Below are positions 83-62,266 of a stretch of DNA of 64,000 nucleotides, in pieces. The notes below the pieces were generated by a model, which saw nothing but the letters and a program-made list of their open reading frames with translations, was not told where the DNA came from and did no database searches. Source of the DNA: Somniosus microcephalus (Eukaryota); NCBI GenBank assembly GCA_052327205.1, contig CM126207.1, positions 205,468,001 through 205,532,000 on the forward strand, in the 5' to 3' direction. The first letter of the stretch is position 1. Each line of letters opens with the position of its first letter. Position numbers and translations under genes: made by a program.

Positions 83-1703
83 CATCTCTTCTTAGGCAGT
101 CCCTCGGAACTGAGGATGACTTGCTACCACATTAAAAATGAGTTCGCAGGTGACTGATGAGTCCAATGTGGGACCTACAGTCTCTGTCACAGGTGGGGCA
201 GACGGTGGTTGAAGGGGCAGGTGGGTGGGGTGCTTGGGTTGATGTGCGCTCCTTCCGCTACCTGCGCTTGGCTTCCGCTTGCTCTCGGCGAAGAGACTCG
301 AGGTGTTTGGCGCCTTCCCGGATGCTTCTCCTCTACTTTGTGTGGTTTTGGGCCAGGGATTCACAGGTGTCGATGGGGATGCCACACTTTTTCAAGGAGG
401 CTTTGAGGGTGTCCTTGAAGCATTTCCTCTGCCCACCTGGGGCTCTCTTGCCGTGCCGGAGCTCCGAGTAGAGCGCTTGTTTTGGGAGTCTCGTATCGGG
501 CATGCGGACAATGTGACCCGTCCATCGGAGCTGATTGAGCGTGGTCTACGCTTCGATGCTGGGGATGTTGGCCTGAGCAACAACACTGAAGTTGGTGCGC
601 CTATCCTGCCAATTGATTTGCAGGATCTTGCGGAGGCAGCGTTGGTGGTACCTCTCCAGTGTTTTGAAGTGCCTGCTGTACATGGTCCATGTCTGAGGCA
701 TACAGCAGTGTGGGTATCATTGCTGCTCTGTAGACCATGAGCTTAGTGCCGGGTTTGAGGTCCTGGTCTTCACTCTCTTCCTCAGGTGACCGAAGGCTGC
801 ACTGGCACACTGAAGGCAGTGTTGGACTTCGTTATTGACGTCTGCCCTTGTTGACAGTAGGCTCCCGAGGTATGGAAAGTGGTCCACGTTGTCCAAGGCC
901 TTGTCGTGGAGAGACAAATACAAGACTTCATGGCAGCACTCTTGCTCCAAGCACTGGCATCTGCTGGACTACGTCATCGTCCAAGCGAGGGACCGCAAGG
1001 ACGTCCGCACCACCCGTGCCATCACAGGAGCTGATGACTGCGAGACAGACCACCGCCTAATCCGCTCTGTCATCTCCATCAATGTAGCCCCAAAACAGCG
1101 GCGGCAACAGAAACAATGCCGCAGGAAAATTGATGCTGGAGCACTCAAAGACCCCGCTAAGAAAGCCCTATTCAGCCTGTGCCTCTCAAACAACCTGATG
1201 ACTCCCAGTGATGCAGAGACACAGAGTGCCCTCAGAGCCTGGTCTGCACTCAAGGCCTCCATAATCAGCGCCTGTGAAGAGACGCTCGGTCACTCGACCA
1301 GGAAACATCAAGACTGGCTCGACGAGAACGACCAGGAGATCCAGGAGCTAATAAGCCACAAGCGCAAGGCATTCCTGATCTGGAAACAGCAACACAACTC
1401 GAGAGCAAGAAAGCAGCGCTACAGAAGCCTGAAGGCCGAGGTCCAACAAAAAACTCGCGACCTAAAGAACAGATGGTGGGTGGAGAAGGCGCAGGAGATC
1501 CAGCAGCTAGCCGACAACCACGACGTGCGTGGATTCTTTAGCGCAGTCAAGACCATCTACGGCCCAAGCACCCAAGGCCCTACCCCACTGCAGGCCAAGA
1601 ACGGAGAGGTACTCATCAAGGACAGAGAGGCGGTCAGTGCCCACTGGAAGGAGCACTTTGAAGATCTCCTTAACCGTGACTCTGTCTTCGATGCGAGTGT
1701 CCT
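83..1703 (-). mobile_element. RTE (BovB-like) LINE, 5'-truncated, with inverted 5' segment
   Basis: 83-910 is the RTE 3' end on the minus strand, matching 3274-4296 and 46001-47410. 911-1703 is an upstream ORF piece on the + strand (KTSWQH..SKHWHLLDYV..TDHRL). Flanked by caacttgcatttat (69-82) and caacttgaatttat (1704-1717). Confidence 0.88.
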
Positions 1704-6770: not shown

Positions 6771-9696
6771 AAACATAGGAGATAGGAGTAGGCCATTCGG
6801 CCCCTCGAGCCTGCTCCACCATTCAATGCGATCATGGCTGCTCATCCAAATTCAGTACCCTGTCCCTGCTTTCTCCCCATATCCCTGGATCCCCTTAGCC
6901 TTAAGAAATGTATCTAACTCCTTGAATATACTTAATGAATTGGCCTCAACTGTCTTCTGTGGTAGAGAATTCCACAGGTTCACCACTCTCTGGGTGAAGA
7001 AATTCCTCCTCATCTCAGTCCTAAATGGCTTACCCCTTATCCTTAGACTGTGACCCCTGGTTCTGGACTCCCCCGCCATTGGGAACAGCCTTCCTGCATC
7101 TAGTCTGTCTAGTCCTGTTAGAATTTTGAGATCCCCTCTCATTCTTCTAAACTCCAGCGAATATAAGCCTAATCGACCCAATCTCTCCATACGTCATTCC
7201 TGCCATCCCAGGTATCAGTCTGGTGAATCTTTGCTGCACTTCCTCCATGGCAAGAACATCCTTCAGATAAGGCGATCAAAACTGCACACAATACTCAAGG
7301 TGTGGTCTCACCAAAGCCCTGTACAACTGCAGCAAGACATCCTTGCGCTTGTACTAGAATCCTCTCGCTATGAAGGCCAGCATACCATTTGCCTTCTTAA
7401 CCGCCTGCTGCACCTGCATGCTTACTGTTGTGTATGTACCTTTAAGGGAATAACTGGTCTTAGACTGCAGTACCGGCAGTAACCACCCCTGTATAAAAGG
7501 CCCTAGCAGGCTTCTGTAGTTTCAGTTTCAAGCTGCCTCTTGTTCAGTAAAGTACCTGTTAAACTGTTCTCCCGAAGTCCGTGTATTATTGAGGCGCGGA
7601 CTTTACACTTACCTTCAGCGACTGGTGCACAAGGACACCCAGGTCTCATTGCACTTCCCCTTTTCCCAATCTATTGCCGTTCAGATAATAATCTGCCTTC
7701 CTGTTTGTGCCACCGAAGTGGATAACCTTGCATTTATCCACATTATACTGCATCTGCCCAATTGCCCAACCTGTTCAAATCGTACTGGAGTTTCTCTGCA
7801 TCCCCCTCACAGCACACACGCCCACCCAGCTTTGTGTCATCTGCAAACTTGGAGATATTACATCGAGTTCCCTCGTCTAGATCATTAATATATATTGTGA
7901 ATAATTGGAGTCCTAGCACCGATCCCTGCGCTACCCCACTAGTCACTGCCTTCTACTCGGAAAAAGACCCGTTTATTCCAACTCTTTGCTTCCTGTCTGC
8001 CAACCAGTTTTCTATCCAAGTCAGTACCTTACCCCCAACCCCATGTGCTTTAACTTTGCACGCTAGTCTCTTATGCGGGACCTTATCAAAAGCCTTCTGA
8101 AAGTCATAATACACCACATCCACTGGTTCTCCCGTATCTATTCTACCAGTTACATCCTCAAAAAATTCCAGTAGTTTAGTCAAGCATGATTTACCTTTTG
8201 TAAATCCATGTTGACTTTGTCCGATCCTGTCACTGTTTTCCAAGTGCTCTGCTATTACATCTTTTATAATGGACTCTAGCAATTTCCCCACTACCAATGT
8301 CAGGCTTACCGGTCTATAATTCCCCGTTTTCTCTCTACCACCTTTTTTAAATAGTGGGGTTACATAGCTACCCTGCAATCCATGGGAACTGTTCCAGAGT
8401 CGATAGAATTTTGGAAGATGACCAGCAATGCATCTACTATTTCTAGGGCCACTTCCTTAAGTACCCTAGGATGTAGATTATCAGGCCCTGGGGACTTATC
8501 GGCCTTCAATCCCGTCAATTTCCCTAACACCATTTCCCTACAAATACTGATTTCATTCAGTTCCTCCCTCTCATTAAACCCTATGTTCCCTGACATCTCT
8601 GGGAGTTTATTTGTGTCCTACTTTGTGAAGACGGAACCAAAGTATATATTTAATTGGTCTGCCATGTCTTTGTTCCCCATTATAAATTCCCCTGATTCTG
8701 ACTGCAAGGGACCTACGCTTGACTTTACCAATCTTTTTCTCTTCACATATCTATAGAAGCTTTTACAGTCAGTTTATATGTTCCCTGAAAGCTTACTCTC
8801 ATACTCTATTTCCCCCCTCTTAATTAATCCCTTTGTCCTCCTTTGCTGAATCCTAAACTGCTCCCAATCCTCAGGTTTGCTGCTTTTTCTGGCCAATTTA
8901 TATGTCCTCTCCTTGGATCTTATGCTGTCCCTAATTTCCCTTGTTAGCCAATGTTGAATCACCTTTTTTGTTTCATTTTTATGCCAAACAGGGATGAACA
9001 AATTCTGCAGTTCATCCATGCGATCTTTAAATGTTTGCCATTGCCTATCCACCGTCAACCCTTTAAGTAACATTCCCCAATTCATCTTAGCCAACTCGCG
9101 CCTCATACCATCATAGTTTCCTTTATTTAAATTCAGTGCGCAAGTCTCTGAATCAACTACTTCACTCTCCATCTTAATGAAGAATTCTATCATATTATGA
9201 TCGCTGCTCCCCAAGGGGCCTCTCACAACAAGATTGCTAATTAATCCTTTCTCATTACATAATACCCAGTCTAAGATGGCCTGATCTCTAGTTGGTTCCT
9301 GGACATATTGGTCCAGGAAACCATCCCGTATACACTCTAGGAATTCCTCTTCCACAGTATTGTTACTAATTTGGTTAGCCCAATCTATATGTAGATTAAA
9401 GTCACCCATGATAACTGCTGTGCCCTTATTGCACGCATCTCTAATTTCCTGTTTAATGCCATCCCCAACCTCAGCATTACTGTTTGGGGGTCTATATACA
9501 ACTCCCACTAATGTTTTCTGCCCCTTGGTATTTCTCAGCTCTACCCATACAGATTCCACATCATCAGAGCTAATATCCTTCCTTACTATTGTGTTAATCT
9601 TCTCTTTAACCAGCAATGCTACCCCACCGCCTTTTCCTTTTTGCCTGTCCTTCCTGAATATTGAATACCCCTGGATGTTGAATTCCCAGCCTTGGT
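6771..9696 (-). mobile_element. CR1 LINE ORF2 (APE + RT), 5'-truncated, young family A
   Basis: ORFs 8774-9616, 7953-8378, 7743-7946 and 6852-7190 carry VVYRPP, MGDFN, SDHN, DFQKAFDKV and FADDTK. Near-identical to 30214-33539 and 55162-57110. Confidence 0.93.
7426..7607 (+). mobile_element. Solo LTR (182 bp) related to the Gypsy LTRs of this window
   Basis: TGT...ACA termini, TSD CTTAC (7421-7425 / 7608-7612), TATAAAA box. Shares gtgtatgtacctttaag and ttgttcagtaaa..cctgttaaac with the 175-bp LTRs. Confidence 0.88.
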
Positions 9697-10684: not shown

Positions 10685-11993
10685 GCCTTGACCAGTTCAG
10701 AGGAGTTCCTTTTCACATGACGTGGAAAGGAAGATCGTATGATGCAAATCTAACATCAGTGGTAAAATGTTTTAAACCAACCTGTCATATTAACAGAGTA
10801 CACAATTTGTAATCATGTAAGAGAGTCCTCACTTGTGCGGTATGTTGCACTATTTCCCCACTGAATTTGTACTGTGCAATCTAACTTTAACACATGTACC
10901 TGAATGGTGGTAAGGTCTATGAGACATGAAGCTCCTTTTGCTGATGAAGCGTGGCATTCTTGAGGTGCAGTAAGAGGATTATAATTCAGTCAGAGCAATT
11001 GTCATCAACAGTGAAACTTCTTCCTTGAAGCTTAGTAAGTGATCAGAAGCTTTTTAACCTCCTTGACCAAGCTGTCCTGTCGTTTCCTGACTGGGTTTGA
11101 TGCAAGTGTTTGGACAGCTGTATCTGTCAGTCTGAAGTAGAAAGCCTTATGGGAACCTCTTTATACACAGACAGAAAGCATTGCAGTTCAGTCTACATAA
11201 CTTCTCTTACTTGCATCCTGGTAAATAATTTATTCTGGCTGTTTCCTTAATTACATTTGGTGAACCTATGCAACAAACAGCAGCCAGAATATTAATTTAT
11301 TTTGTGTGATGTCCAGGGTTTCCCGAGCATCAGGTGTGTATTGGTCTGCATGGCAGTGAAGTGTGGAATTCTGTCTTTGTTTATTTTCTCAGAATTTAAT
11401 CTAACTTTTTTGCATTTCGGTTATTCCACACAAAAAAGTTAATTTTTGATTGGGGGGCGGGGGGTACTTTTATAATACTATTAGCCATGTAGTACTGAGG
11501 TTTTAGTAGTAGCAGTTAGAGCATCCTCTGGCATTGTAGCTGTTATAACTTCAATGCATGTGTTATTATGAGAATTGTCGATTTATGAAGAAAGCATCTA
11601 AATCTGTATTGGAAAAATAATTCCGTTTGTTATTGGGAATTCACATGGACATACTTTAAAATACAAGATTTATTGACTATATTTTATTTGCTTGGTTTGT
11701 TCAGTCTATTTTTATTGTAATCTTTTTAGGATGCACTAAATGACTGTTGGTCATATCTGTAGTCCGAGTTGTGTAAATTCAGTTAGTAGTCATTTATTTT
11801 TGTTGAAAGTAGTTAACTGGATTGAATATACAAAGGATTGATAGTAATTGGTTGCAGTTTACCTTTTTACTTGTTGGGTACCTAAACAGAACCGACTATA
11901 AATGTAACTTGTCACATTTTCTGCAAGTTACAAAGGAGCATACTGTACATTTTTGTAGTTACTGTTAAATTAATTGTGCTTTTCTTTTGGCAG

Positions 11994-12191
11994 GATTCTG
12001 AATCCTTGGATACTTGTATTCAGAATACTCTTTCAGCACTCTATCCCCCCTTTGAGGCTACAGCATCCACTGTTCTCAGTCAGGTTTTTGATGTAGTGGA
12101 GAAAACGTACCGTGGTGACGGATTGTGCTACCTCATTGATTTCCTTGTCCCTGCTAAACACATTCTGCAATGCATTCAGCAGGATGCTTGT
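11994..12191 (+). CDS. PLEKHG4: PLEKHG4/PLEKHG4B-like RhoGEF, N-terminal coding exon (66 codons, phase 0/0)
   Basis: ttttcttttggcag| [66 protein letters not shown] |gtaagt. This is the conserved N-terminus of the ARHGEF40/KIAA1755/PLEKHG4(B) family. The paralog (4 vs 4B) cannot be resolved by eye. Confidence 0.85.
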
Positions 12192-17780: not shown

Positions 17781-18243
17781 TCTATACATTTGTATGGTTT
17801 TGAATGTTACGAATTATGGAAAAGTGGTAGACTGTAGTCATTATGTAAAAAAATGGTATATCATTCCACTGAATCATTGTCCATACTGTAAATTTAAATA
17901 ATTACTAAATTTGCACCTACTTAACTCTTGTGCCCATAAACATGTTTGTATTCGTGGTCAGCAATGTCTGCACTTTCCACTCATTTCTGTTTTTTACTTA
18001 AGCTCCACAGTAGTGAACATGAGAATGCTGATTTGTTTGCCTGGTTACCAAATTTGTGTGTATACTTTTAATGGACCATAACAATGTATTTGATGGGCTT
18101 AAGTTAGTTTACTTACGTTGTCTACAATGAATATACTTTTAGGTAGATTTAAAAAAAAAATTGAACTGTTTAACACATGGAAAATTGTTTTAAGTCCAAG
18201 AGCAATTATTTGACGGGAATCTTTTTCATCCTATTTTTAACAG

Positions 18244-20803
18244 TTTCAATACTGTGGATTACTGTTCCGCTATGAAGGCTGGCCTTTATGCATCTGTGAA
18301 AAAATAGTAATACAACTCTCCGCACTTGACTGGCGAACTTTACAACCTGGTGATTTCTACCTTCAAGTGGTTCCACACCTGAAGAAGACTCCACGTATTG
18401 TAGTAAAATGCCTTGCAACAAATGGATACATTATAGAGGAAGTAGTAGTTCCAGAGGTCTCTTATACTTCTATCTTCACTATGGAGTGGTTGGACAATAT
18501 TAACAAGGGACGGATGGGAACAGCTTTGCAAAATTGTCTCTTGTCTACTGACAGCAGTATCTTTCGAGTACCTTGGGAAGAGGTGGTGAATCCAGAATTT
18601 GTTGATAAACCAAAAATGATTGAAAGTATGTCATCAGGAAACTGGATTGTGGATCAGGAAGTTGTTTGTAACAATCCCAACAATTTACCATTGAATGATC
18701 TCAGTACAGCACCAGAAAACCAATCTGTAACAACTCAAAATCTAACTATAAAAGGAAAAGGACTGAAGACACAGCAAATAAATCTTCCAAGGGCTTTACA
18801 GCATTCCCTAAGTAGTGTTGCAGATTGTTTAGATGTTTCTGTTAATTCCCCAACCATTTCTCTTCAAGAACTTGAGGGAGAGTATGTAGAACTTAGTCAA
18901 ATTTCATTAAGTGAAGGTGATTCCCTTTCACAAATAAGTAGTTCAGACTCAAACTTGCAACATGCATTGAGGAGTATCAGGTCATCAGAAGTGACCCCTT
19001 TGGAAGCCTTGAGTAGTAGCACTTGTTCCAAGGAATCACTTTGTCCAAATTACATGGAGGCATCTTCAAATGTAACTTGCAGGTCCAATTTAGAAACAAT
19101 ACACAGCCCATTTAATTTAAATGTTAGCGGCAATGAGGAAATTCTTGAACATCAGTCACTCGCAGATACTATGGAAAACAGAATAACATTTCATAATAAG
19201 ACTTGCAATAGTAGTGAAACTAAAGTGCCTTGTGTGTTTACAAAAGTAGAGCTGTCTTCATCAGCGGAAACTGACCTTCACCAAGAAGGAATGGAACAAG
19301 AGTTTAAGTCTTGTTGTGGAGACATGCATATGTTAATTAACCAGACCACAAATGCCACAGAAAACAATTTAAACAGTAGACTTTTGGAACCAGTGGTTTG
19401 CAACGACACACAAACTTCTGCTCGAGATTTACAAGATAGACAATTTCAAAGTTCTTCAGGTGATTCATTATCTACACCACACAGTAGAAATAAAATTGAT
19501 GCGAAAGAATGCGAAGAAATTTATAGAGAAAATAAATTCCACAAAAATAACCAAAATATATCTGAAGCAGATGCAACAGAAAATACCCGTGGCAAACATA
19601 CAAAAGTTGCAAAGCAGAACAGCACCTCGATGAAAGAATTTTTCAATCATCAATTGACTGACTGTAATTTAATTAACACTATGGAATTTGTAAATATTGC
19701 TGTCACGGCATCTCCTACGTACATACAGCCTTTGGCTAAAAACTTAGAGCAGAAAAAGACAATGAACCAACAGTCAGAGTGTATTGAGCATGCACAATTT
19801 AATGGTCAGAGCCTTACTCGAACTGTACAGTTTATTAAAAATGTAACTCAACCAACAGCAGAGTATTTTGTTCAAACATTTGCCGATGTGCAATTGGATG
19901 GGTCCAAAATCTCTCTAAACCAGTCTTTAAGCTCTGAAGACACTGTTGACTCTAATTTATGTAAGAATTTTGCACTTGTTGAAAATTTAGATCTTCCATT
20001 GAAGGACAATGGAAAGCATATAGAGATTAAAGCTGATCAGTTAATTAAAGATGATGTACAACCTGCCATTCACCAACTGGCTGATGCCACAGGCACAGCA
20101 GAGTTAATAAATGAAGAAACAAAATCTGCAACACATGCTGATCATTTACAACCTAATTTAACTGAGTGTACAGAAAAACGTGGATTTGAATTTATGACAC
20201 ATTTGGAGAGAGATCGTGTATCTTGGACAGAGGAAAACATACAATTGCATGAATGTTCAGTTAATAAAGAAAGAACTAGTCAGCAGTTTCAAGTCAATGC
20301 ATTACATCAGACGTCTGCACATGTGGAACATGCAAATCAACTGCAGAGTGAATTCAGCAAACAAAAACACATTGAAACTAAGGATTTGAACTTGACAGAA
20401 AGTTGTAATCTAACACTTCTTGAAGAATTAGATCCACTACAGGACATTGGAAATCCATTCTTGCAAGACTTGCCAAATGAGACTGCAGTGCAAGACGATG
20501 CTGAATTTCATGTTAAAAAAGAAGGCGAACCCAAGGAATATTCTACTGTTGAAGAGTACTGGTCAAATATAGTAATGATAGAGTCTAGCATTGCCTACTC
20601 AAGTATAGTGGGAAGTGAAAAGCTTGAAGCTACTTCTGCAAGTATAGACAGAAATGAAAATCTGCCCTTTGCCAATAACGCACACAGGCAAGATTTAAAG
20701 GAACACAAAAATCAATCAGGAAAGCAAGCTACAGAAGATTTAATTATTGTAAATGCTGAAGAGCAGAAGCAAGAAGGCCGTCTTACTGACAAAAATCTAG
20801 AAG
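18244..20803 (+). CDS. PLEKHG4: PLEKHG4/PLEKHG4B-like giant coding exon (~853 codons)
   Basis: tttttaacag| FQYCGLLFRYEGWPLCICEKIVIQL..PGDFYLQVVP..FTMEWLDNIN..PWEEVVNPEFV, the conserved family domain, in phase with the previous exon. A long S/E/Q/N-rich open frame follows. Donor AAG|gtagga at 20804; alternative AAT|gtaagg at 20845. Confidence 0.85.
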
Positions 20804-23800
20804 GTAGGATATCTCTGAAATTGAACGACATGGCTTTTATTAATGTAAGGTATATAGAATACCTTTTTTTGCTTTTCCCAGCATAATTGATCGCAATAAC
20901 AAAATAAATGTAAATGGCTCTGTAATACTAAAGGAGGTCATTATACTGAATCCTAAGACTTTAGCCCCAATTTCAACTTTGGTTGGGTGGGTGGCGAGGT
21001 GAGTTGGAAACTTACCCACTGCTGCAGAAATACGGTCATGGGATATTTTAATTTCTAGCCCTCCTTAACATGCTGCTGGTCCACTTCCCTGCAACTGCCT
21101 CCCTCCCAAAAATCAGGTAGCCCATAGCCATCTGTCGGAAAATGGGTAAATGTGGAAAGAGAGTTCCGGGGCAGGGAGGCCTGAACTTCCCTTGTGGGAG
21201 CATTCCTCCTGCTCCTGGCCCCACAAAGGAAAGTTTAAAAAAAAAACTTAACTGTTTGGGCTTCTTCATCTTACCGGCAGAGCGCAACATTCTTCAGCCC
21301 GGTAGGAAAGCCACAGTGGCTTCTCCACTCAGGCCTGAGTTAAAATTGCAGTCAGGGCCCAATTACATCATCAGACATGATCTGCATATATAAAAAGGAC
21401 CCTGCCGGCTTTGGACGGGCGGCTTAGCAGTCGGCGGGCTCTGAGTGGCTTGAGGTCTGTTGTATCCGTGTGTTAATGGAGACACGGAATGCAGGAGTTG
21501 GTTTAACAGGTGTTTACTGAACAAAGTCTGGAGGTGAACTAAAAGATACAAGTCGCTATACAGGCTTATATACCCGAGTGGTCACTACCGGTATTACAGT
21601 ACACAGGGGCTCTTAAAGGTACATACACTACAATTCCTCCCCTTTTAGATAATTAGTACATAACATTTTAAGTAATCATTAATTAACATGTTTACAAGAA
21701 CAATAATTACACATTTGCTGCAGTTAATCAATTATAAGTCAGTCTCTCTGGAGGCTTTCTGACTCGGTCCGGATAATGCCTCAGTGGTGTAGTAGTTTTC
21801 GGTGGTGTAGTAGGTTCTTTTGGCAAGGTCGATTCGGCTTGAATGCCAGTGTCGGGTTCATCTGGTTCCAGTATCACCGGATCGGAGGTAGATACTATGG
21901 GTATCTCTGCTTCATCATTAGGCGTATAGAGTTGTGTAGGTTGTCCCTTTTCGGATGACTCTATGATCTGGTCAGCATGGCGCCTTATTATGCTTTCTCC
22001 AATGTCCACGGTATACATCAGCAGTCCTAGTCGTGTGCAAATAGTTCCAGGCTGCCATTTCTCGGTACGGTAGTCCCGGGCCAAAACTTGTTGACCTATC
22101 TGGAAGGTTCTAGTTGGCCTTTCATTCATGCCTTGAAATTGCCGGTTCTCTACGTCCCTTCTGATGTTTGGCTTGATCAAATCCAGCCGGCATCTTAGTC
22201 TTCTATTGAAAAACATCATGGCGGGAGTTTGGTTTGTAACCACGTGTTGCATTCCTGTACGCAAACAAGAAGTTATCTACCTTATGTTGTAGATTTATGT
22301 CTTCATTACCCATGGCCTTTATGGCCTTCTTGAAGGTCTGGAGAAACCTTTCAGCTAATCCATTGGTGGCGGGATGGTATGGGGCAGACGTGTAGTGCTT
22401 AACCCCATTGTTTTTTTAAGAACTTCCTGAATTCTTCGGACACAAATTGCGGTCCATTATCAGAAGAGATCTGTTCAGGCAGCCCATTCCTGGCAAATAT
22501 GGTCCTTAATACTGTGATGGTTTTTTCCGTGGTGGTGGAGGACATCTTTATTACCTCCGGCCACTTGGAGTGTGCATCAACCGCGATTAAGAACATTGAG
22601 TCCATAAATGGACCAGCAAAGTCGATGTGTACCCTTTGCCATGGAGATGAGGGCCACTCCCATGGATGTAGAGGGGCTTGTGGTGGGGCGTTTTGGACCT
22701 TCTGGGATCCTAGACAGCTCTTGGTCATTTCTTCGATGTCTCCATCGATACCTGGCCACCACACAAACGCTCTGGCTAGGTTCTTCATTTTCACTCCACC
22801 CAGATGCCTCTCGTGAAGCTCCTTTAGCACTTTATCCTGGAGTTTGGGTGGAATCCACACACAAAGGTTCCTCGGCACACTGACAGCTGTTCTCCTCTTT
22901 GCGAGAATGCTGGCAACAGTGGTTCGCCATGTGCTGGCCATCCCTTCACCGTTAAATCGTAGACTCGTGAGAGAGTCGGGTCATTTCTCGTTTCCTTTTC
23001 AATGGTAGAATTTGTTACTGGTAGACATTCCACTATGGTTGAGTGGAACATCTCCACTGGGTCTACTGTAGGTGCCTCTTCTACCGTTGGCAACGGTAGG
23101 CGCGATAAACCGTCAGCATTCCCATGCTGTTTTGATCCTTTGTATTCTATGTCATATTGGTGTGCCCCTAGGAAAAGGGACCACCTCTGTAGCCTTTGCG
23201 CTGTCATAATGGGAACGCCCTTTTTAGGCTTGAATATGGAGACGAGGGGTTGATGGTCAGTCAAAAAGGTAAATTTTTGTCCGTGTAGGTAATGGTTGAA
23301 TTTCTTCACTCCCCCACACTAGGCTGAGTGCTTCCCTGTCGATCTGGGCATAGTTACGCTCAGCTGAGTTCAATGAGCGTGACGCAAAAGCTATCGGCCG
23401 CTCCAAGCCATCAGGGAATCTATGCGATAATACCGCTCCTACGCCGTAAGGGGATGCATCGCACGCCAGTCTGATTGGCAGTGATGGGTTGTCATGAGCC
23501 AACACTTCCTTGGACGTGATCAAGCCTTTGCATTTATGGAAGGCACGTTTACAGTCTTCGCTCCATTTCCAAATTACTCCCGTTTGTAGCAGTGCGTTCA
23601 GAGGGTGCAGAACAGTTGATAAGTTTGGTAAAAATTTATGATAGTAATTTATCAATCCCAGGAACGACCTTAATTGTGAGACATTTTCAGGTGCTGGGGC
23701 TTTTATGACCGCTTCAATTTTTTCAGGTGACTTATGCAACCCTTCCATTATTTATTATGTGGCCACAATATGATATTTGTCTCTGGAAAAATTCGCACTT

Positions 23801-25042
23801 GGGGCGATTTGCTCGTAGGCCCCGTTCTCTCAGCCTAGTGAGCACCTGCTCCAAATTGGCACGGTGCTCGTTGTCGTTTTCTCCTATTACAAGGATGTCG
23901 TCTAGGTAGCATTGAGTCCCCGGAATCCCTTGCAGGACTTGCTCCATAGCTCTTTGCCAGATAGCTGGAGCTGATGCTACTCCGAAAACCAGTCGATTGT
24001 ACTGGTACAGGCCTTTGTGTGTGTTTATCGTGAGATACCTTTAAGAGGCCTCCTCAACCTCCATCTGTAGATATGCCTGTGCCAAGTCAATTTTGGTGAA
24101 ATGTTTCCCTCCGGATAGTGAGGCGAAAATATCTTCTATCCTCGGAAGAGGATACTGTACCGTGTGAAGGACCGGGTTTACAGTCACCTTGAAGTCCCCA
24201 CAGATGCGAATTTTTCTCTGTTCTTCAAATTTATCATTATTCAATGTTTTCTTCATGACCGGGACGATGGGTGTTGCCCACTCGCTCCAATCTACCTTGG
24301 ATAACACACCTCACTTTTCCAAATTCTCCAGCTCTGCCTCGACTGCTGGACGAATTGCGTATGGCACCGGCCTTGCCTTAAAAAACTTGGGAATTGCCGC
24401 ATCTTCTACTTTTATTGAGGCGGTGACGCCTTTCAAGGTTCCTAGTTCCTGTTGAAACACTTCTTTGGCGTTGGCCAAGATGTCTTTTAATCGTTCAGGT
24501 ATGACGTCATCATCATTTTTTTTCTTACTGGTCACCGTCAGTGCCTGAATGGAGTGCCAGTCTAAACTTATCTTCCTGATCCATTCACGTCCCAACAGCG
24601 GTGGACCACCATCTTGCAGAACGTATAAATACAACTTCTGTATTTCCTTGCCGTTGTATACAACAGGCACCCTTATTTTCCCTCTGGGGTATACTTTCTG
24701 CCCTGTATATGTCTTCAAGCTAATGGATGTGTCTTTCAAAGGTATATGCGGAAATAGCCGCTCGTAATCCCGTCGACTTATGACGGTCAGAGCTGATCCT
24801 GTATCTAGCTCCATTTTAACTGGGGACCCCGCTATCGTGAGGGTAACCCAAATGGTCTGGTAATCTTCTTTGGCAATTACATTATGTAATTTGAGACAGC
24901 TTAGTCTCTTGTTTCCGGAGTCGCTATCGCTCTTCTGGTCTTCGGAGCTACTGTCTGTCATCATTTGTACCTTTCTGTACTTTTCCTTATTGATTTTTTT
25001 TCTGTCAGTGGATTTTTTGTTTCCAGATCGGCAATCACGTGC

Positions 25043-25225
25043 AATCACAGAAATCACAGAAACCCCACCGTGCAGATAGAGGCCATTTCGGCCCATCGAG
25101 CCTGCATCGACACATATCCCACCCGATCCCCGTAACCCCTACACCAACACATATCCCACCCTATCCCCCTAACACTAAGGGTCAATTTATCATAGCCAAT
25201 CAACCTAACCCGCACATCTTTGGAC
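25043..25225 (-). mobile_element. HE1-like shark SINE, 3' half
   Basis: The minus strand reads gtccaaagatgtgcgggttaggttgattggc..aaattgacccttagtg..gcaggctcgatgggccgaaatggcctc.. and ends in a (ttctgtgat)n CR1-type tail. Confidence 0.75.
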
Positions 25226-25608
25226 AATGTGTACCTGTTCCTGGGACTAGGGACAGGGTCACTGGCAAGGCTTGGAAGCTAAGCAGAGCCAGGCCTGGTT
25301 AGTACCTGGAGGGGTGACCATCCGGGAAGACCAGGTGCAGAAGGTCACGGAAGGAGCCCCGGAAGGGGCGGCTGGTGAGCAGGCCCGGGCGTTGGGCTGA
25401 AGATTGTTGGACAGGAGGAATGGTGGAAATGGAATGGCGGCGCGCACAGACGCAGCGGCTTTGCTTCTCCCAGGACGGTGCTATTTACGTTTAATGTTAA
25501 TGTTATTTGTACTGGACTCATGGGAGCTTGCAAGATCACATTTCGTTGTTCATGTACTTGTGCATTGTACAATGACAATAAAGTTGAATTATTATTATTA
25601 TTATTATT
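25226..25608 (+). mobile_element. Putative 5S rRNA-derived SINE (SINE3) with Rex1/Babar-like 3' tail
   Basis: 25271-25344 aligns without gaps to vertebrate 5S nt ~44-117 (60/74 by my count against the recalled sequence), including box A and box C. No TTTT inside. Ends tttcgttg..gtacaatgacaataaag..(att)n. Confidence 0.72.
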
Positions 25609-26964
25609 ATCTTTCCGCATTGCCTGCATGCTTTGTCCTTGAACCAGCAGTCCCTCTGGTCATGGGTGGATCTGCCGCAGCGATAACATCTCTCGAAACC
25701 CCGTGTCATTTCATGGGTGCCGAAGTCCTGTGGCTTTTGCTGTATCTCTGCAGCTCCTCTTGCTGCTGCTTCGTATGATACAGCCACACTGAAAGCCTTG
25801 TCCAGTGTCAAATCTTTCTCAGAAAGTAGCCTTTTCTGTGTTCCTTCACTTAGGAGACCGCAGATGAATTTGTCTCGTAGAGAATCTGCCAGTCCTGCCC
25901 CAAATTGGCAGTGCTTTGACAGCTTTCTTAATTCGGTGAGGTAATCAGCGTTACTTTCATTCTTGTGCTGATTCCTCCTGAAGAATTTGAATCGTTCCGC
26001 TATCCGCAGCGGTGTTGGGTTTAAGTGCTCCTGTAGGGTATCAACAATCTCCTTAAAATTCTTGTCCATCGGTTTGGCTGGAGTGATTAAGTTTCGTAAC
26101 AGCCCGTATGTCCTTGCGCCCATCAGATTTAGAAGTACCGATGCCTTTTTATCATCCTCTACTTCATTCGCTGTGCAATATACCTCCACTCTTTCCACAT
26201 ATGTGGTCCAATCCTCTATATCACTATCGAAAGCAGTAATATTGCCAGTCCTTAGGCATCCTGAAAATCAAAAATGGCGTGCCCCGCGCCTTCCTTTCTT
26301 TCCTGCTGAGAAAAAAATGGCGCCTCCCACGCTTTCCTGCCGCTGCTGACAACGCTGTTCTCCGCGGTTTTTATTTACACATTTTTAATAGTTGGAGACT
26401 CGTTCCCGCCGGACTCTCTGGGACTCTTCCGTCCCTCTGCTTGGTCCGAACGCCGACCTGCTTTGCAGCGCCGGCCGTCTCCCGAGTGCTCCACCCTCCG
26501 TCTCTGTTTGCCTCCGCCTTCCGACTTGCTGCTCGGCCCCGCTGCAGAGCCACCCGATCGAGCCCCAGCCCGCCGCCCAGGAAGGATTAGTGCAGTACCT
26601 GCCACCAGCCCGGCTAGCTGGTGAACTCACTTTTTTTTTTGCTTCGACCTTCGTCTGAGGAATCGATCTCCTTGAGGTGCTGCCGAATTGCAGGTAAGTC
26701 CGTTTCCAATTCGTCGCCACTGTTGTATCCGTGTGTTAATGGAGACACGGAATGCAGGAGTTGGTTTAACAGGTGTTTACTGAACAAAGTCTGGAGGTGA
26801 ACTAAAAGATACAAGACGCTATACAGGCTTATATACCCGAGTGGTCACTACCGGTATTACAGTACACAGCGGCTCTTAAAGGTACATACACTACAAGGTC
26901 GAGTGAGAAACCTGGGTGATTTGAACTGCCAGGTAGGAAGTGTTAAAATTGCCCCCTTTCACTT

Positions 26965-47650: not shown

Positions 47651-50600
47651 TGTAGTGTATGTGCCTTTAAGAGCCCCCCGTGTACTGTAATGCCGGTAAT
47701 GGCCACTCGGGCTATATAAGCCTGTATATTGTGTTGTATCAGTTAGTTCACCTCCACACTTTGTTCAGTAAACACCTGTGAAACCTACTCCTGCCTTCCG
47801 TGTCTCTATTAACACACGGATACAACAGTGGCGACGAATTGGAAACGGACTTGCCTGCAATTCGGCAGCACCTCAAGGACATCGATTCCTCAGACGTCCA
47901 AAGTCGAAGAAAAGCAAGAAAAAAAAAGCTGTGGTTTCACCAGCTAGCCGAGCTGGTGGCAGGTACTGCAATAATCCTTCCTGGGCGGCGGGCTGGGCTC
48001 CATCGGCTGGCTCTGCAGCGAGGCCAAGCAGCGAAGGCGGAGGCAAGCAGAAACAGACGGGGGGGCGGTGGGGGAGCACTCGGGAGACGGCCGGCGCTGC
48101 AAAGCAGGTCGGCGTTCGGACCTAGCAGAAAGAGTCCGGCGGGAACGAGTCTCCACCTGTAAATAAAAATTAAAAAAAATAAAAATAAAAACCGCGAAAA
48201 ACAGCGTTGACAGCAGCAGCAGCGGCGGGAAGCGCCATTTTTTTTTGCAGGAAAGAAAGAAAAGCGCGGGAAGCGCCATTTTTTTTCCAGGATGCCTAAG
48301 GCTGGCAATATTGATGCTTTTGATAACGATATAGAGATTTGGACCACATGTGGAAAGAGTGGAGAAATATTGCACAGCGAATGAAATGAAAGATGATAAA
48401 AAGGCATCGGTACTTCTAAATCTGATGGGCGCAAGGACATACGGGCTGTTACGAAACTTAATCACTCCAGCCAAACCGATGGACAAGAATTTTAAGGAGA
48501 TTGTTGATACCCTACACTGCCAATTCGGGACAGGACTGGCAGATTCTCTACGAGACAAATTCGTCTGCGGTCTCCTAAGTGAAGGAACACAAAAAAAGCT
48601 ACTTTCAGAGAAAGATTTGACACTGGACAAGGCTTTCAGTGTGGCTGTATCATACGAAGCAGCAGCAAGAGGAGCTGCAAAGATACAGCAAAAGCCACAG
48701 GACTTCGGCACCCATGAAATGACACGGGGTTTCGAGAGATGTTATCGCTGCGGCAGATCCACCCATGACCAGAGGGACTGCTGGTTCAAGGACAAAGCAT
48801 GCAGGTAATGCGGAAAGATGGGACACATTACACGTGTATGCCGATCTGGAAACAAAAAATCCACTGACAGAAAAAAAATCAATAAGGAAAAGTACAGAAA
48901 AGTACAAATGATGACGGACAGTAGCTCCAAAGACCAGAAGAGCAACAGTGACTCCGGAAACAAGAGACTAAGCTCTCTCAAATTACATAATGTAATTGCC
49001 AAAGAAGATTACCAGACCATTTGGGTTACCCTCACGATAGCGGGGTCCCCAGTTAAAATGGAGCTAGATACAGGATCAGCCCTAACTGTCATAAGTCGAC
49101 GGGATTACGAGCGGCTATTTCTGCATATACCTTTGAAAGACACATCCATTATCTTGAAAACGTATACGGGGCAGAAAGTATACCCAAAAGGGAAAATAAA
49201 GGTGCCTGTTATATACAACGGCAAGGAAATACAGAAGTTGTATTTATACGTTCTACAAGATGGTGGTCCACCGCTGTTGGGACGTGAATGGATCAGGAAG
49301 ATACGTTTAGACTGGCACTCCATTCAGGCACTGACGGTGACCAGTCAGGAAAAAAATGATGATGACGTCATACCTGAACGATTAAAAGACATCTTGGCCA
49401 ACGCCAAAGAAGTGTTTCAAGAGAAACTAGGAACCTTGAAAGGCATCACCGCCTCAATAAAAGTAGAAGATGCGGCAATTCCCAAGTTTTTTAAGGCAAG
49501 GCCGGTGCCATACACAATCCGTCCAGCAGTCGAGGCAGAGCTGGAGAATTTGGAAAAGGCAGGCGTATTATCCAAGATAGATTGGAGCGAGTGGGCAACA
49601 CCCATCGTCCCGGTCATGAAGAAAACGTTGAATAATGATAAATCTGAAGAACAGAGAAAAATTCGCATCTGTGGAGACTTCAAGGTGACTGTAAACCCGG
49701 TCCTTCACACGGTACAGTACCCTCTTCCGAGGATAGAAGATATTTTCGCCTCACTATCCGGAGGGAAACGTTTCACCAAAATTGACTTGGGGTCGTTCCT
49801 GGGATTGATAAATTACTATCATAAATTTTTACCGAACTTATCAACTCTTCTGCACCCTCTTAATGAACTGCTACAAACAGGAGTAATTTGGAAATGGAGC
49901 GAAGACTGTAAACGTGCCTTCCATAAATGCAAAGACTTAATCACGTCCAAGGAAGTTTTGGCTCATTACAACCCATCACTGCCGATCAGACTGGCGTGCG
50001 ATGCATCCCCTTACGGCGTAGGAGCAGTATTATCGCATAGATTCCCTGATGGCTCGGAACGGCCGATAGCTTTTGCGTCACGCTCATTGAACTCAGCTGA
50101 GCGTAACTATGTCCAAATCGACAGGGAAGCACTCAGCCTGGTATGGGGAGTGAAGAAATTCAACCATTACCTACAGGGACAAAAATTTACCTTGTTGACT
50201 GACCATCAACCCCTCATCTCCATATTCAACCCTAAAAAGGGTGTTCCCATTATGACAGCGCAAAGGCTACAGAGGTGGTCCCTTTTTCTAGGGGCACACC
50301 AATATGACATAGAATACAAAGGATCAAAACAGCATGGGAATGCTGACGGTTTATCGCGCCTACCGTTGCCAACGGTAGAAGAGGCACCTACTGTAGACCC
50401 AGTGGAGATGTTCCACTCTACCATAGTCGAATGTCTACCAGTAACAAATTCTGCCATTGAAAGGGAAACGAGAAATAACCCGACTCTCTCTCGAGTCTAC
50501 GATTTAACAGTGAAGGGATGGCCAGCACATGGCGAACCACTGTTGCCAGCATTCTCGCAAAGAAGAGAACAGCTGTCAGTGTGCCGAGGAACCTTGATGT

Positions 50601-52016
50601 GTGGATCCAGAGTGGTGATTCCACCCAAACTCCAGGATAAAGTGCTAAAGGAGCTTCATGAGGGGCATCTGGGTGGAGTGAAAATGAAGAACCTAGCCAG
50701 GGCGTTTGTATGGTGGCCAGGTATCGATGGAGACATCGAAGAAATGACCAAGAGCTGCCTAGGATGCCAGAAGGTCCAAAACGCTCCACCACAAGCCCCT
50801 CTACATCCATGGGAGTGGCCCTCATCTCCATGGCAAAGGGTACATATCGACTTTGCTGGTCCATTTATGGACTCAATGTTCTTAATCGCGGTTGATGCAC
50901 ATTCCAAGTGGCCGGAGGTAATAAAGATGTCCTCCACCACCACGGAAAAAACCATCACAGTATTAAGGACCATATTTGCCAGGAATGGGCTGCCTGAACA
51001 GATCTGTTCTGATAATGGACCGCAATTTGTGTCCGAAGAATTCAGGAAGTTCTTAAACAATGGGGTTAAGCACTACACGTCTGCCCCATACCATCCCGCC
51101 ACCAATGGATTGGCTGAAAGGTTTGTCCAGACCTTCAAGAAGGCCATAAAGGCCATGGGTAATGAAGACATAAAACTTCAGCATAAGGTAGATCACTTCT
51201 TATTTGCATACAGGAATGCAACACATATGGTTACAAACCAAACTCCCGCCATGATGTTCTTCAATAGAAGCCTAAGATGCCGGCTGGATTTGATCAAGCC
51301 AAACATCAGAAGGGAACGTGGAGAACCGGCAATTTCAAGGCATGAATGAAAGGCCAACTAGAACTTTCCAGATAGGTCAACAAGTTTTGGCCCGGGACTA
51401 CCGTACCGAGAAATGGCAGCCTGGAACTATTTGCACACGACTAGGACCGCTGATGTATACCGTGGACATTGGAGAAAGCATAATAAGGCGCCATGCTGAC
51501 CAAATCATAGAATCATCCGAAAAGGGACAACCTACACCACAGCTCTATACGCCTAATGATGAAGTAGAGATACCCACAGTATCTACCTCCGATCCGGTGA
51601 TACTGGAACCAGATGAACCCGACACTGGCATTCAAGCCGAATCAGCCTTGCCAAAAGAACCTACTACACCACCAGAAACTACTACACCACCGAGGCGTTA
51701 TCCGGACCGAGTCAGGAAGCCTCCAGAGAGACTGACTTATAATTGATTAACTGCAGCAATGTGCAGATTATTGTTCTTGTAACATGTACTTAATGATTAC
51801 TTAAAATATTATGTACTGGTTGGCTAAAAGGGGAGGAATTGTAGTGTATGTGCCTTTAAGAGCCCCCTGTGTACTGTAATGCCGGTAATGGCCACTCGGG
51901 CTATATAAGCCTGTATATTGTGTTGTATCAGTTAGTTCACCTCCAGACTTTGTTCAGTAAACACCTGTGAAACCTACTCCTGCCTTCCGTGTCTCTATTA
52001 ACACACGGATACAACA
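47651..52016 (+). mobile_element. Gypsy (Mag-like) LTR retrotransposon with internal deletions
   Basis: LTRs 47651-47827 and 51840-52016 (177 bp, 2 substitutions seen), TSD GGTTA, PBS TGGCGACGA at 47829, PPT aaaaggggaggaat. Same family as 21458-26895. Confidence 0.96.
48292..51746 (+). pseudogene. Gypsy gag-pol: 843-aa PR-(RT deleted)-RH-IN frame at 48818-51349
   Basis: Gag 48350-48808 ends in a premature TAA in the second CCHC. Pol lacks YLDD and has a frameshift near 51318. Confidence 0.92.
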
Positions 52017-52161
52017 GGTTACCCACCCAATTGTCTGTAGAATCGGGCATCACACGCCCTTGCTTGCAATTTGCGGCATGATTCCTGACTCTACTGAAAG
52101 CGGGAATGCACCTCTTAAAGCGAGTTTGCATAACCCACTTTCATTTGCTGTGTTCAGACTA

Positions 52162-54904: not shown

Positions 54905-57870
54905 CCGTGGTGGTGAACGGTTGTTTTTTGGACTGGAGGAAGGTATACAGTGGTGTTCCCTTGGCGTCGGTACTAGGACCACTGCTTTTCTTGATATATA
55001 TTAATGGCTTGGACTTGGGTGTACAGGGCACAATTTCAAAATTTGCAGATGACACAAAACTTGGAAGTATAGTGAACAGTGAGGAGGATAATGATAGACT
55101 TCAAGAGGACATACACAGGCTGGTGGAATGGGCGGACACGTGGCAGATGAAATTTAACGCAGGATTGGGAGCAGTTCAGGATTCAACAATGGAGGACAAA
55201 GGGATTAATTCAGAAAGGGAAAATAGAATATGAGAGTAAGCTTTCAGGGAACATAAAAACTGACTGTAAAAGCTTTTATAGATATATGAAGAGAAAGATT
55301 GGTGAAGTCAAGCGTAGGTCCCTTGCAGTCAGAATCGGGGGAATTTATAATGGGGAACAAAGAAATGGCAGACCAACTAAATACATATTTTGGTTCTGTC
55401 TTCACAAAGGAGGACACAAATAACCTCCCAGAAATACCGGGGAACATAGGGTCTGATGAAAGGGTGGAACTGAAAGAAATCAGTATTTGTAGGGGCATGG
55501 TGTTAGGAAAATTGATGGGACTGAAGGCCGATAAATCCCCAGGGCCTGATAATCTACATCCCAGGGTACTTAAGGACGTGGCCCTAGAAATAGTAGATGC
55601 ATTGCTGGTCATCTTCCAGAACTTGATAGACTCTGGAACAGTACCCATGGATTGGAGGGTAGCTAATGTTACCCCACTATTCAAAAAAGGTGGCAGAGAA
55701 AAAGCGGGGAATTATAGACCGGTAAGCCTGACATCGGTAGTGGGGGAAATGCTAGAGTCCATTATAAAAGATGTAATAGAGCACTTGGAAAGCAGTGACA
55801 GGATCGGACAAAGTCAACATGGATTTACAAAAGGTAAATCATGCTTGACTAATCTACTGGAATTTTTTGAGGATGTAACTGGTAAAATAGATAAGGGAGA
55901 ACCAGTGGATGTGGTGTATTTGGACTTTCAGAAGGCTTTCGATAAGGTCCCGCATAAGAGATTAGCGTGCAAAATTAAGGCACATGGGATTGGGGGCAAG
56001 GTATTGACTTGGATAGAGAACTGGTTGGCGGACAGAAAGCCAAGAGTTGGAATAAACGGGTCGTTTTCCGAGTGGCAGGCAGTGACTAGTGGGGTACCGC
56101 AAGGATCGGTCCTAGGACCCCAGCTGTTCACAATATATATTAATGATCTGGACGAGGGAATTGGATGTAATATCTCCAAATTTGCAGACGACACAAAGCT
56201 GGGTGGGAGGGTATGCTGCGAGGAGGATGTCATGAAACTCCAGTACGATTTGGACAGGCTAGGTGATTGGGCAGAAACATGGCAAATGCACTATAATGTG
56301 GATAAATGTGAGGTTATCCACTTTGGTGGCAAAAACAGGAAGGCACATTATTATTTGAATGGCAATAGATTGGGAGAAGGGGAAGTGCAAAGAGACCTGG
56401 GTGTTCTTGTGCACTAGTCGCTGAAGGTAAGCATGCAGGTGCAGCAGGCGGTTAAGAAGGCAAATGGTATGTTGGCCTTCGTAGCAAGAGGGTTCGAGTA
56501 CAGGAACAAGGATGTCTTGCTCCAGTTGTACAGGGCCTTGGTGAGACCACATCTTGAGTATTGTGTGCAGTTTTGGTTGCCTTATCTGAGGAAGGATGTT
56601 CTTGCCATGGAAGGAGTGCAGCGAAGATTCACCAGGCTGATACCTGGGATGGCAGGAATGATGTATGAGGAGAGATTGTGTCGATTGGGCTTATACTCAC
56701 TGGAGTTTAGAAGATTGAGAGGGGATCTCATCGAAACCTATAAAATTCTGTCAGGCCTGGACAGACTAGATGCTGGAAGGATGTTCCCGATGGTCGGGGA
56801 GTCCAGAACCAGGGGTCATAGTCTAAGGATAAGGGGTAGGACATTTCGGACTGAAATGAGGAGGAACTTCTTCACCCAGAGAGTGGTGAACCTGTGGAAC
56901 TCTCTGCCACAGAGTGTGATGGAAGCCAGTTCATGAAATATATTCAAGAAAGAGTTGGATATATTTCTTGAGGCTAAAGGGATCAAGGGATATGGGGAGA
57001 AGGCAGGGACAGGGTACTGAATTTGAATGATCAGCCATGATCTCATTAAATGGCGGAGCAGGCTCGAAGGGCCGAATGGCCTACTCCTGCTCCTATCTTC
57101 TATGTTTCTAAAAGTGCAAAATTACACATTTTGGTAGGAAGAACAAGGAGAGGCAATATTAATTAAGGGGCACAATTCTAAAGGGGGTGCATGAACAGAG
57201 ACCTGGGGGTATATGTGTACAAATTGTAGAAGGTGGCAGGGCAGGTTGAGAAAGCAGTTTTAAAAAGCATACGGAATCCTGGGCCTCATAAATAGAGGGA
57301 TAGAATACAAAAGCAAGGAAGTTACGATGAAACTTTATAAAACACTGGTTTGTCCTCAACTGGAGTATTGTGTCCAATTCTGGGCACTGCACTTTAGGAA
57401 GGATGTGAAGGCCTTCGAGAGGGTGCAGAAAAGATTTACGAGAATGATTCCAGGGTGAGGGACTTCAGTTAGATGGATAGACTAGAGAAACTGGGGTTGT
57501 TCTCCTTAGAGCAGAGAAGGTTGAGAGGAGATTTGATAGAGATGTTCAAAATCATGAGGGGTCTAGACAGAGTAGATAGAGAGAAACTGTTCCCATTGGC
57601 GTTAAGGTGGAGAACCAGAGGACACAGATTTAAGGTGATTGGCAGAAGAACCAAAGGTGACATGAAAAAAAACATTTTCATGCAGCGAGTGGTTAGGATC
57701 TGGAATGCACTGCCTGAAAATGTGGTGGAGGCAGATTCAATCGTGGCTTTCAAAAGGGAATTTGATAAGTACCTGAAGGAAAACATTTTGCAGGGCTACG
57801 GGGAAAGGGCAGTGGAGCCGGCATAGGCTCGATGGACCGAATGGCAGCCTTCTGTGTTGTAATGATTCTA
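54905..57870 (+). mobile_element. CR1 3' part interrupted by a younger CR1
   Basis: SGVPLASVLGP..FADDTK..WQMKFNA| at 55161 resumes at ~57111 (KC..HFGRKN) and runs to a tail at ~57870. Confidence 0.85.
55162..57110 (+). mobile_element. CR1 family A, 5'-truncated
   Basis: 372-aa RT ORF 55299-56417 and ORF 56433-56936; tail ttctatgtttcta. Confidence 0.94.
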
Positions 57871-58099: not shown

Positions 58100-58650
58100 A
58101 GTGGTTTTTATTGATGAATACTGCTGTCTGGTGCCCTGATGATCACACGTATGTACTCAATGACGCCCTGCACATGGGGAAAGCCAGGCACTGCTGCAAA
58201 TCGCTGAGTTCTGCCCTGCTGACCATTGAGGGAAGGTGATGTATTGGTTAGAGGACATCGGTGACCTGCATTATGCAGCTGTGTACTGCAGACTGGGTGA
58301 AGTGGGTGATGTCCCCTGCAGCAGACTGGAAAGAGCCATTGGTGAAGAAGTTGACGGCTGTGGTGACTTTGAGAGGAACTGGCAAAGCATAGCCCTCTAG
58401 TCCAGCAGGCAGCAGGTCCCCTTGCAGAAGGCTGTAGATGTCCGAGATAGCCTGCCTGGTGAAGCGAGGCCTCCTCAGTCAGGTCCAGGAAAGTTACTCT
58501 GGTCTTGTACACCATGTGCTGGGTATGGTCTCCTATGATCAGGCACCTTCACCTGCTGTCTTCTGAAAGGCACTGCTCTGAGGCTGGTGCTGCTCCTCTT
58601 ACTACAACTGTTCCTCCAAGACTGGCAATAGTAGCACCCATAATGATTAG
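58100..58650 (-). pseudogene. Harbinger transposase N-terminal half, degraded
   Basis: VYKTRVTFLDLTEE.. and RFAAVPGFPHVQGVIEYIRVIIRAP in ORF 58108-58515. Confidence 0.72.
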
Positions 58651-61968: not shown

Positions 61969-62266
61969 CCACACTGATTATGTGTACCTTGCACCCAGAA
62001 ATTGGTGTACATTATGCCTGTTTTACACCCAAAAAAGGGCAAAACACACACTAATTTCTACCCCAATAACTTCTGTTGCATGAGGCCTACGCCAAGTGCC
62101 GTGATGCTGGATCAGGATGTACATTGAGTTTGACGCCCCTGCTTTAGAAACCATTTCCAGGATAAAATGGAGAGCCTGTTAGCTTCGGAGGGATTTGTGT
62201 ATTTTTGATAGGCATGCTTTTTCTGAATGTAGGAATTATCCAATTTGAATTTATCTTGTCCACTAG

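Follow-up and report, generated by a model that had tools for sequence, protein, structure and literature searches.

One copy of a high-copy family of short retroposons in sharks is located at positions 25234–25608 of a 64,000-nt stretch of the Somniosus microcephalus genome (assembly GCA_052327205.1, contig CM126207.1, positions 205,468,001–205,532,000, forward strand), which is referred to below as the window and supplies all coordinates. The anatomy of this element, its multi-copy status, the 5' end shared by its copies, the joint amplification of its head and tail, the match of its middle part to the 5' ends of Rex1 LINEs and its insertion without a target-site duplication are directly supported. 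We consider it probable that the element is a SINE with a 5S rRNA-derived head and a bipartite body derived from a Rex1 LINE, and we infer that RNA polymerase III (Pol III) transcribes it, that it ends in a Rex1 tail and that it is copied by the Rex1 machinery.

Genomic setting

Exons of PLEKHG4 were located at 11991–12191 and 62266–62514, together with a large single exon of 2.6 kb at 18241–20883 (+), the first 200 residues of which show 92% identity to sawshark, 87% to sevengill shark, 76–83% to galeomorph sharks and 70–78% to rays; these values point most likely to a squalomorph shark. The element is unique within the window and lies in sense orientation in a 41-kb intron of this gene (Table 1). 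The same intron contains two Ty3/Gypsy copies with 177-bp LTRs, approximately 95% identical to each other, at 21457–26896 (-) and 47651–52017 (+). Both are defective: the first, in which the element resides, has protease and integrase domains and is interrupted by two SINE insertions, and the second has protease, RNase H and integrase domains, with no reverse-transcriptase domain found by Pfam and no counterpart of 23670–24081.

The original prediction had placed the element in a provirus with ~99% identical LTRs. The LTR identity was reproduced (175 of 177 positions), but the host is a Ty3/Gypsy LTR retrotransposon and not a retroviral provirus, because Gypsy protease, RNase H and integrase domains are present and its length of about 4.9 kb is too small for env. 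The description of the element as fairly young holds in terms of divergence only, that is, two differences in 177 LTR positions. If the epaulette-shark rate of 7e-10 per generation applies (available text of PMC10587355), these differences correspond to about 8 million generations (1–29 million), which bounds the SINE insertion only if the Gypsy copy did not already carry the SINE when it inserted.

The other SINE insertion in the host is a 5'-truncated fragment, which lies head to head with the 5S-headed element, about 5–9 bp from it in the same young Gypsy copy. We take this fragment to be V-SINE/HE1-like. It is flanked by a 4-bp duplication (CAAT at 25042–25045 and 25225–25228), and its tail matches CR1 3' ends elsewhere in the window (6790–6814 and 57058–57082). 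A single complex insertion of both pieces was considered and rejected, since the fragment has a duplication of its own and host DNA separates the two; the site is possibly a hot spot used locally by the machineries of two different LINEs. Elsewhere in the window, a weak Rfam match to snoRNA sR2 at 58302–58368 (+) scored 27 bits (gathering score 42, E 0.062) and probably reflects chance.

Table 1. Features of the element and of its host in the window
Feature	Position	Strand	Basis
Host Ty3/Gypsy LTR retrotransposon	21457–26896	-	LTRs at 21457–21633 and 26720–26896; domains
V-SINE/HE1-like fragment (assumed name), 5'-truncated, separate neighbour	25046–25224	-	Own CAAT duplication; CR1-type tail
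Whole 5S-headed SINE copy, 375 nt	25234–25608	+	Empty site; depth step; loose-ended contigs
Non-5S leader: predicted 10-bp terminal hairpin (25234–25257) and box A-pairing stretch (25262–25275)	25234–25270	+	Folds
5S-derived part (5S nt 44–117) with type-1 Pol III promoter motifs	25271–25344	+	60–61/74 identity; RF00001
Box A	25277–25291	+	12–13/15 identical to 5S
IE	25294–25299	+	6/6 identical to 5S
Box C	25307–25324	+	13/18 identical to 5S
GC-rich linker	25347–25425	+	Depth near zero in organisms D and E; not matched elsewhere in the window
Extreme 5' end of Rex1 LINE (core 25434–25471), assigned by sequence match	25426–25483	+	Match to Rex1 consensus starts
Variable junction of LINE 5' and 3' parts	25465–25517	+	Joints from 25461–25473 to 25508–25522
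LINE-type 3' tail, predicted stem-loop 25541–25577	25512–25587	+	Motif in contigs L004 and L005; folds
(ATT)7 microsatellite end	25588–25608	+	Sequence

Boundaries and family status

Sequencing depth was mapped onto 25215–25760 for four of the 24 listed runs, namely the DNA runs X2 (organism B), X12 (organism D) and X13 (organism E) and the RNA run X23 (organism B). The left boundary of the SINE was located at 25234 (±2), i.e. at about 5S position +7. Depth rises steeply at this position in all three DNA runs, from 925 through 434,615 to 844,061 in organism B, from 2,880 to 1,219,092 in organism E and from 0.7 to 9,959 in organism D, and in 204 contigs of organism E the sequence upstream of this point differs from contig to contig without relation (agreement 0.35 and a median of 255 nt), such that the copies share one 5' end. 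An empty site is visible in the second Gypsy copy, whereas two independent insertions fill it in the first. Owing to this empty site, the depth steps and the loose ends at 25234, positions 25226–25233 are assigned to host DNA; the boundary proposed originally, at 25226–25228 and coinciding with 5S position +1, was thus about 6 nt too far to the left. No target-site duplication was found around 25234–25608, and SINE and host share 2-nt microhomologies (CC at 25234–25235 and AT at 25609–25610). The loose-end consensus of organism E hints at two extra 5' letters, GC, with which the terminal hairpin would reach 12 bp.

Parts of the SINE occur in 20 of the 24 listed runs, with holders from eight studies, and at least half of 37 sampled words occur in nine (organisms A, B and C), four of which comprise only 21–27 Mb; no RNA run is listed among the holders in the run index. 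Head and tail depths are 844,061 and 636,633 in organism B, 20,566 and 25,061 in organism D and 2,165,530 and 1,967,861 in organism E, and this near equality in all three DNA runs indicates that the unit moves as a whole. In organism B the depth is about 900-fold that of the flank bin; such summed contig depths are not copy numbers, the firm lower bound being the 204 flank-bearing contigs of organism E. The available text of SINEBase (PMC3531059) describes SINEs as shorter than 1 kb and interspersed instead of tandem, as well as multi-copy, and the present element is 375 nt long, has unrelated flanks in these 204 contigs and is thus present in at least 204 contigs of organism E that differ in their 5' flanks.

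Several subfamilies can be distinguished. Organisms D and E retain the head, the middle block (25429–25465) and the tail (25512–25577) and skip ~49 nt between block and tail, and organism B has both a long form and a form that skips 25474–25517 (77 RNA reads with 22 starts; three contigs). Overall, 44–56 nt of the junction are missing in organisms D and E and in a subfamily of organism B, the long form of which, as judged from the alignments, extends further into the Rex1 5' sequence than the short ones do. The copy in the window differs from nearly all contigs of organism B at 25323, 25363 and 25408, among the sites listed. Organism E shows no depth on the Gypsy flank, and thus the range of the SINE extends over lineages not sharing the host Gypsy element at 85% likeness.

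The 5S-derived head

The head was compared with two eukaryote-type 5S sequences, L006 and L007, both of which exceed the Rfam gathering score and which leave 5S nt 1–30 uncovered (L006 has poly(A) there and L007 is cut). Over 5S nt 44–117 the ungapped identity is 61/74 (82%) to L006 and 60/74 (81%) to L007, in agreement with the ~81% predicted; the next-best position in the window reaches 36/74, and the highest value among 20 shuffled windows is 38/74. The identities to 5S also exceed the minimum set for SINE3, namely 60% across 60 nt or more. An Infernal search with RF00001, which had been suggested as a check, gave a match at 25233–25346 with 27.7 bits and E 0.0029 (0.15 when the whole window was searched), although the gathering score of 38 was not reached. 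The predicted retention of box A and of a box C-like motif was borne out, and IE is retained as well, all three in ungapped 5S spacing. All eight guanines that we take to be TFIIIA contacts are kept. At 25306, 25321 and 25329 organisms D and E have kept 5S letters that are changed in organism B and in the window copy, which supports descent from 5S.

The 114-nt head folds with z -3.6, with none of 200 shuffles equally stable, and the CCTGG/CCAGG helix noted originally forms in this fold; sub-pieces of the head folded alone were not significant (z -1.5 and -0.8). Positions 25262–25266 are predicted to pair with 25287–25291, where the box A region has drifted from 5S, so that a 5S-like arm is rebuilt. 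The first 37 nt, common to organisms D and E, appear not to be 5S, as had been suspected for the start of the head, because they mismatch over 5S nt 31–43 and the 5' part of the Rfam alignment is poor. SINE3s usually diverge upstream of box A (available text of PMC10886601). No run of four T residues occurs in the element, as predicted, the first lying at 25735. A 5S rRNA gene or a processed 5S pseudogene was rejected on the grounds of the non-5S first 37 nt, the missing T4 run and the 260-nt body.

Both 5S references come from bacterial entries. In L006, a contig of a bacterial MAG, a eukaryote-type 5S at ~144–262 (-) is cut at approximately nt 30 and follows a LINE-like 3' end that terminates in poly(A), which indicates host contamination of the MAG; the arrangement is presumably that of a Mutsu/Tx1-type insertion in 5S rDNA. 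L007 represents similar contamination in a bacterial isolate assembly.

The body and the Rex1 5' block

The linker is shortened by indels in organism E, where the loose-end consensus matches both linker ends, and is different in organism D. The middle block that follows is, by its sequence, the extreme 5' end of a Rex1 LINE. It was compared with the CR1-group LINE consensuses of PMC13343379 Table S2 (~1,000 rows in the available version, each over the first about 400 nt). Positions 25434–25460 match, by eye, the starts of skate and teleost Rex1 consensuses at 26 of 27 nt (LeuEri_Rex1-9 from the little skate, SolSen_Rex1-1, ThaAma_Rex1-4) and at 25 of 27 nt those of LeuEri_Rex1-2, LeuEri_Rex1-12 and MegCyp_Rex1-1, and 25452–25471 match LeuEri_Rex1-5 at 19 of 20 nt. 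TCTCCC and CGGTGCT follow the block at nearly the spacing of LeuEri_Rex1-9, and a 10-mer from the start of the block has 18 matches in the available rows, all of which are LINE/Rex1 and all at the sequence start. Two L2 consensus rows also open with the short start AAGATGGCG, and hence only the longer block is specific to Rex1. The conjecture that the segment ATGGCGGCGCGCAC is a LINE 5' end, giving a bipartite body, was thus well founded, and bipartite LINE-derived SINEs in the sense of Kojima (2018) have a LINE 5' part within the body (26 of 27 nt here) and, as is probable here, a 3' end in common with that LINE.

A scan of viral and genome contigs with the middle block gave no matches, and protein searches using the open frame that crosses the body were likewise empty. 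The Rex1 block folds worse than shuffled sequences (z +1.9), which makes a self-cleaving ribozyme there unlikely.

The tail

The predicted tail motif is present, as is the (att)n end. The motif TTTCGTTG...TACAATGACAATAAAG also ends repeats in the vertebrate-like contigs L004 and L005, in which simple repeats follow; since these contigs were chosen for having the motif, it is necessarily invariant in them. Its two halves pair as a stem in three of three folds. We take the tail type to be that of fish Rex1/Babar ends. The tail matches no CR1 or RTE 3' end within the window, which contains no Rex1, nor does it fit any L2/CR1_DR, Crack, CR1Y or I tail printed in the available part of Fig. S1 of Ohshima (2012; PMC3472496). 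The sea-anemone Rex1-24_NV tail printed there is also unlike it, which counts against a Rex1 tail. Given the adjacent Rex1 5' part, these exclusions and the assumed fish type, the tail is probably a Rex1 3' end.

Scans with the tail motif gave no matches in genome contigs and two in metagenome contigs (chance expectation 0.01–0.7 for assumed library sizes), with no LINE reading frame upstream of either. Three matches in viral contigs all lie within one phage coding motif and were set aside as chance, as were pattern-search matches in contaminated genomes. PF09004, which we assume to be typical of Rex1 proteins, was absent from both contaminated genomes searched, with the controls likewise silent.

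Expression

The RNA run, 24% of which was covered, is stranded (5,579 versus 217 on the Gypsy flank), and the Gypsy family is strongly transcribed from its sense strand, at a depth of about 5,500. The SINE head has sense depths of 34–105 versus antisense depths of 27–75, i.e. no sense excess, and the 3' half has 25–79 versus 31–128, with antisense ahead. Within the part of the run covered, the only listed pile-up on the SINE is an end at 25552, and read starts show none at its 5' end among those listed; for both head depth and starts, the library type may miss such RNA. The SINE reads look like copies inside Pol II transcripts, with no free SINE RNA visible. Judged from its promoter motifs, Pol III transcription of the head is likely.

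Proposed mechanism and alternatives

The following sequence of events would account for the element. An internally deleted (bipartite) Rex1 would have gained a 5S-derived head by template switching, as in Kojima's 2018 model. TFIIIA and TFIIIC would bind the box A–IE–box C region, Pol III would start about 43–45 nt upstream of box A and, as there is no internal T4 run, the RNA would extend into the flank, in the case of the window copy to 25735. The Rex1 protein would then bind the tail stem-loop for target-primed reverse transcription, with priming at a nick in the target to which the (ATT)n end anneals (the 2-nt AT overlap), and later deletions would have trimmed the 5'/3' junction to give the subfamilies.

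The tail could have been exchanged, such that it and the mobilization come from another LINE clade (Crack, Daphne, L2-like or RTEX). Tail exchange has been documented for bipartite SINEs (available text of Kojima, 2018; PMC5786205) and would be consistent with the mismatch to Rex1-24_NV. However, the printed L2/CR1, Crack and I tails fail to match as well, and a single donor of the neighbouring 5' and 3' parts is the more parsimonious assumption. The tail type that we assume to be fish Rex1/Babar also speaks against an exchange, which we regard as unlikely. It is quite unlikely that the SINE arose by internal deletion from an autonomous Rex1 already equipped with a 5S head. The additional Rex1 5' sequence in the long form of organism B fits such a parent, but among the loose ends listed the best-supported ones past 25465 lead directly to the tail (agreement 0.93 in organism D and 0.99 in organism E), and the Rex1 terminus is intact behind the linker, which fits a head added later.

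The mismatches of box C to 5S (five of 18 positions) count against a working Pol III promoter and would suit a dead or incidental one, with the head as a passenger of Pol II transcription from the Rex1 5' block or of read-through. The RNA run, without a sense excess or a listed 5' pile-up of starts, points the same way, as does the Rex1 start, which presumably resembles a YY1-type motif. Headless copies would then be expected, but depth in organism B does not rise at 25426 (838,648 to 792,666 to 757,000), the ratio of head to tail is about 1:1 in three organisms and the 5' end common to the copies is 43 nt upstream of box A; a passenger head is thus very unlikely. The one copy in the 64-kb window and the Rfam score below gathering could suggest a single-copy chimera in which a 5S pseudogene is joined to part of a LINE, but this is effectively ruled out by thousands of contig pieces in three DNA runs, the fixed 5' end and the subfamily indels common to different organisms. 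The 5S-headed SINE with a bipartite Rex1 body remains the preferred reading.

Implications

By the criteria applied to its sequence, the element is a SINE3 member, as originally proposed, and probably of the bipartite kind with a Rex1 donor; its architecture and type of mechanism are known, and the family does not constitute a new class of element. The chances are about even that it represents an undescribed, long-lived shark family, the first 5S SINE driven by Rex1 and the first bipartite derivative from the CR1 group. RTE, Vingi, Ingi and R2 are single-ORF LINEs. If the family is indeed the first such derivative, a rule would suggest itself, according to which single-ORF LINEs need a 5' RNA element in addition to the 3' tail, and the 27–38-nt block kept here would be that element. 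Rex1 would add a distant clade to the donors of bipartite elements, and the common factor may be the missing ORF1, since Rex1 shares this lack with RTE, Vingi, Ingi and R2. Through the Rex1 body it would become testable why bipartite derivatives come from only some LINEs: the LINE 5' block of roughly 30 nt kept in three shark-run organisms is a natural test piece, the deletion of which can be assayed by a retrotransposition test. In shark genomes, a high-copy 5S-like repeat will also disturb the counting of 5S rDNA and the annotation of rRNA, and SINE insertions are usable as phylogenetic markers.

Comparison with known systems

No description of a shark 5S SINE or of a 5S–Rex1 pair was found among the titles and passages of the open-access papers searched, and strings from the element occur in none of the paper texts and supplements searched (including PMC5953449, PMC5786205 and PMC3472496); an uncurated entry for the family in a shark repeat library is likely. 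For sharks, the available part of Ohshima's table (PMC3747384) contains only tRNA SINEs, and the only known SINEs added, in its available text, by a 2023 paper on a squalomorph genome (PMC10468316) are HE1 and SacSINE1. These described shark SINEs, HE1 (a V-SINE with the HER1 tail) and SacSINE1 (a DeuSINE), share the host group with the present element but have tRNA heads and CR1/L2-type tails. A 2024 table of rDNA-derived elements, in its available part, includes no cartilaginous fish (PMC10946416).

Like zebrafish SINE3-1, AmnSINE1 and OS-SINE1, the shark SINE has a 5S type-1 promoter head, a vertebrate host, a CR1-group partner and an (ATT)n end. Those three are 5S DeuSINEs with CR1-4_DR-type or RSg-1 tails, and vertebrate SINE3s are moved by the CR1 clade, according to the available text of PMC7245038. 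The shark SINE, in contrast, has a tail that does not match the SINE3/CR1_DR tails printed in the available sources, and its body is Rex1 5' sequence without space for a Deu domain, as judged without direct Deu alignment. Assignment to the DeuSINEs (SINE3-1, AmnSINE1, SacSINE1) by tail was rejected, as no tail of the CR1-4_DR type, as printed in those sources, is present. The only SINE–Rex1 pair in the available part of Ohshima's table is the sea-anemone SINE2-5_NV with Rex1-24_NV (PMC3472496, PMC3747384); SINE2-5_NV has a tRNA head and another tail, and no Rex1 5' part is reported for it there.

In the available text of Kojima (2018; PMC5786205), only RTE and Vingi are donors of 5' parts to SINE bodies, ORF-less bipartite derivatives are known only for RTE, Ingi, Vingi and R2, 'for unknown reasons', and Rex1 is not mentioned in the accessible text or supplement. 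According to the available text of PMC13343379, Rex1 is found throughout the vertebrates, rays being among the groups in which its coverage is highest, and is universally without ORF1. The closest counterparts of the shark SINE in architecture are CoeSINE5 (coelacanth) and SINE-1_Pmo (python), in which a 5S head is joined to RTE LINE 5' and 3' parts (available text of PMC5786205), and Ped-1 (springhare), with a 5S head and a BovB tail (available part of PMC3747384 Table 1). All of these share with it a 5S head followed by LINE-derived sequence and a microsatellite end. Their donor is RTE, whereas that of the shark SINE would be Rex1 of the CR1 group, and unlike them it keeps the extreme LINE 5' terminus and has an 80-nt linker and a non-5S hairpin leader.
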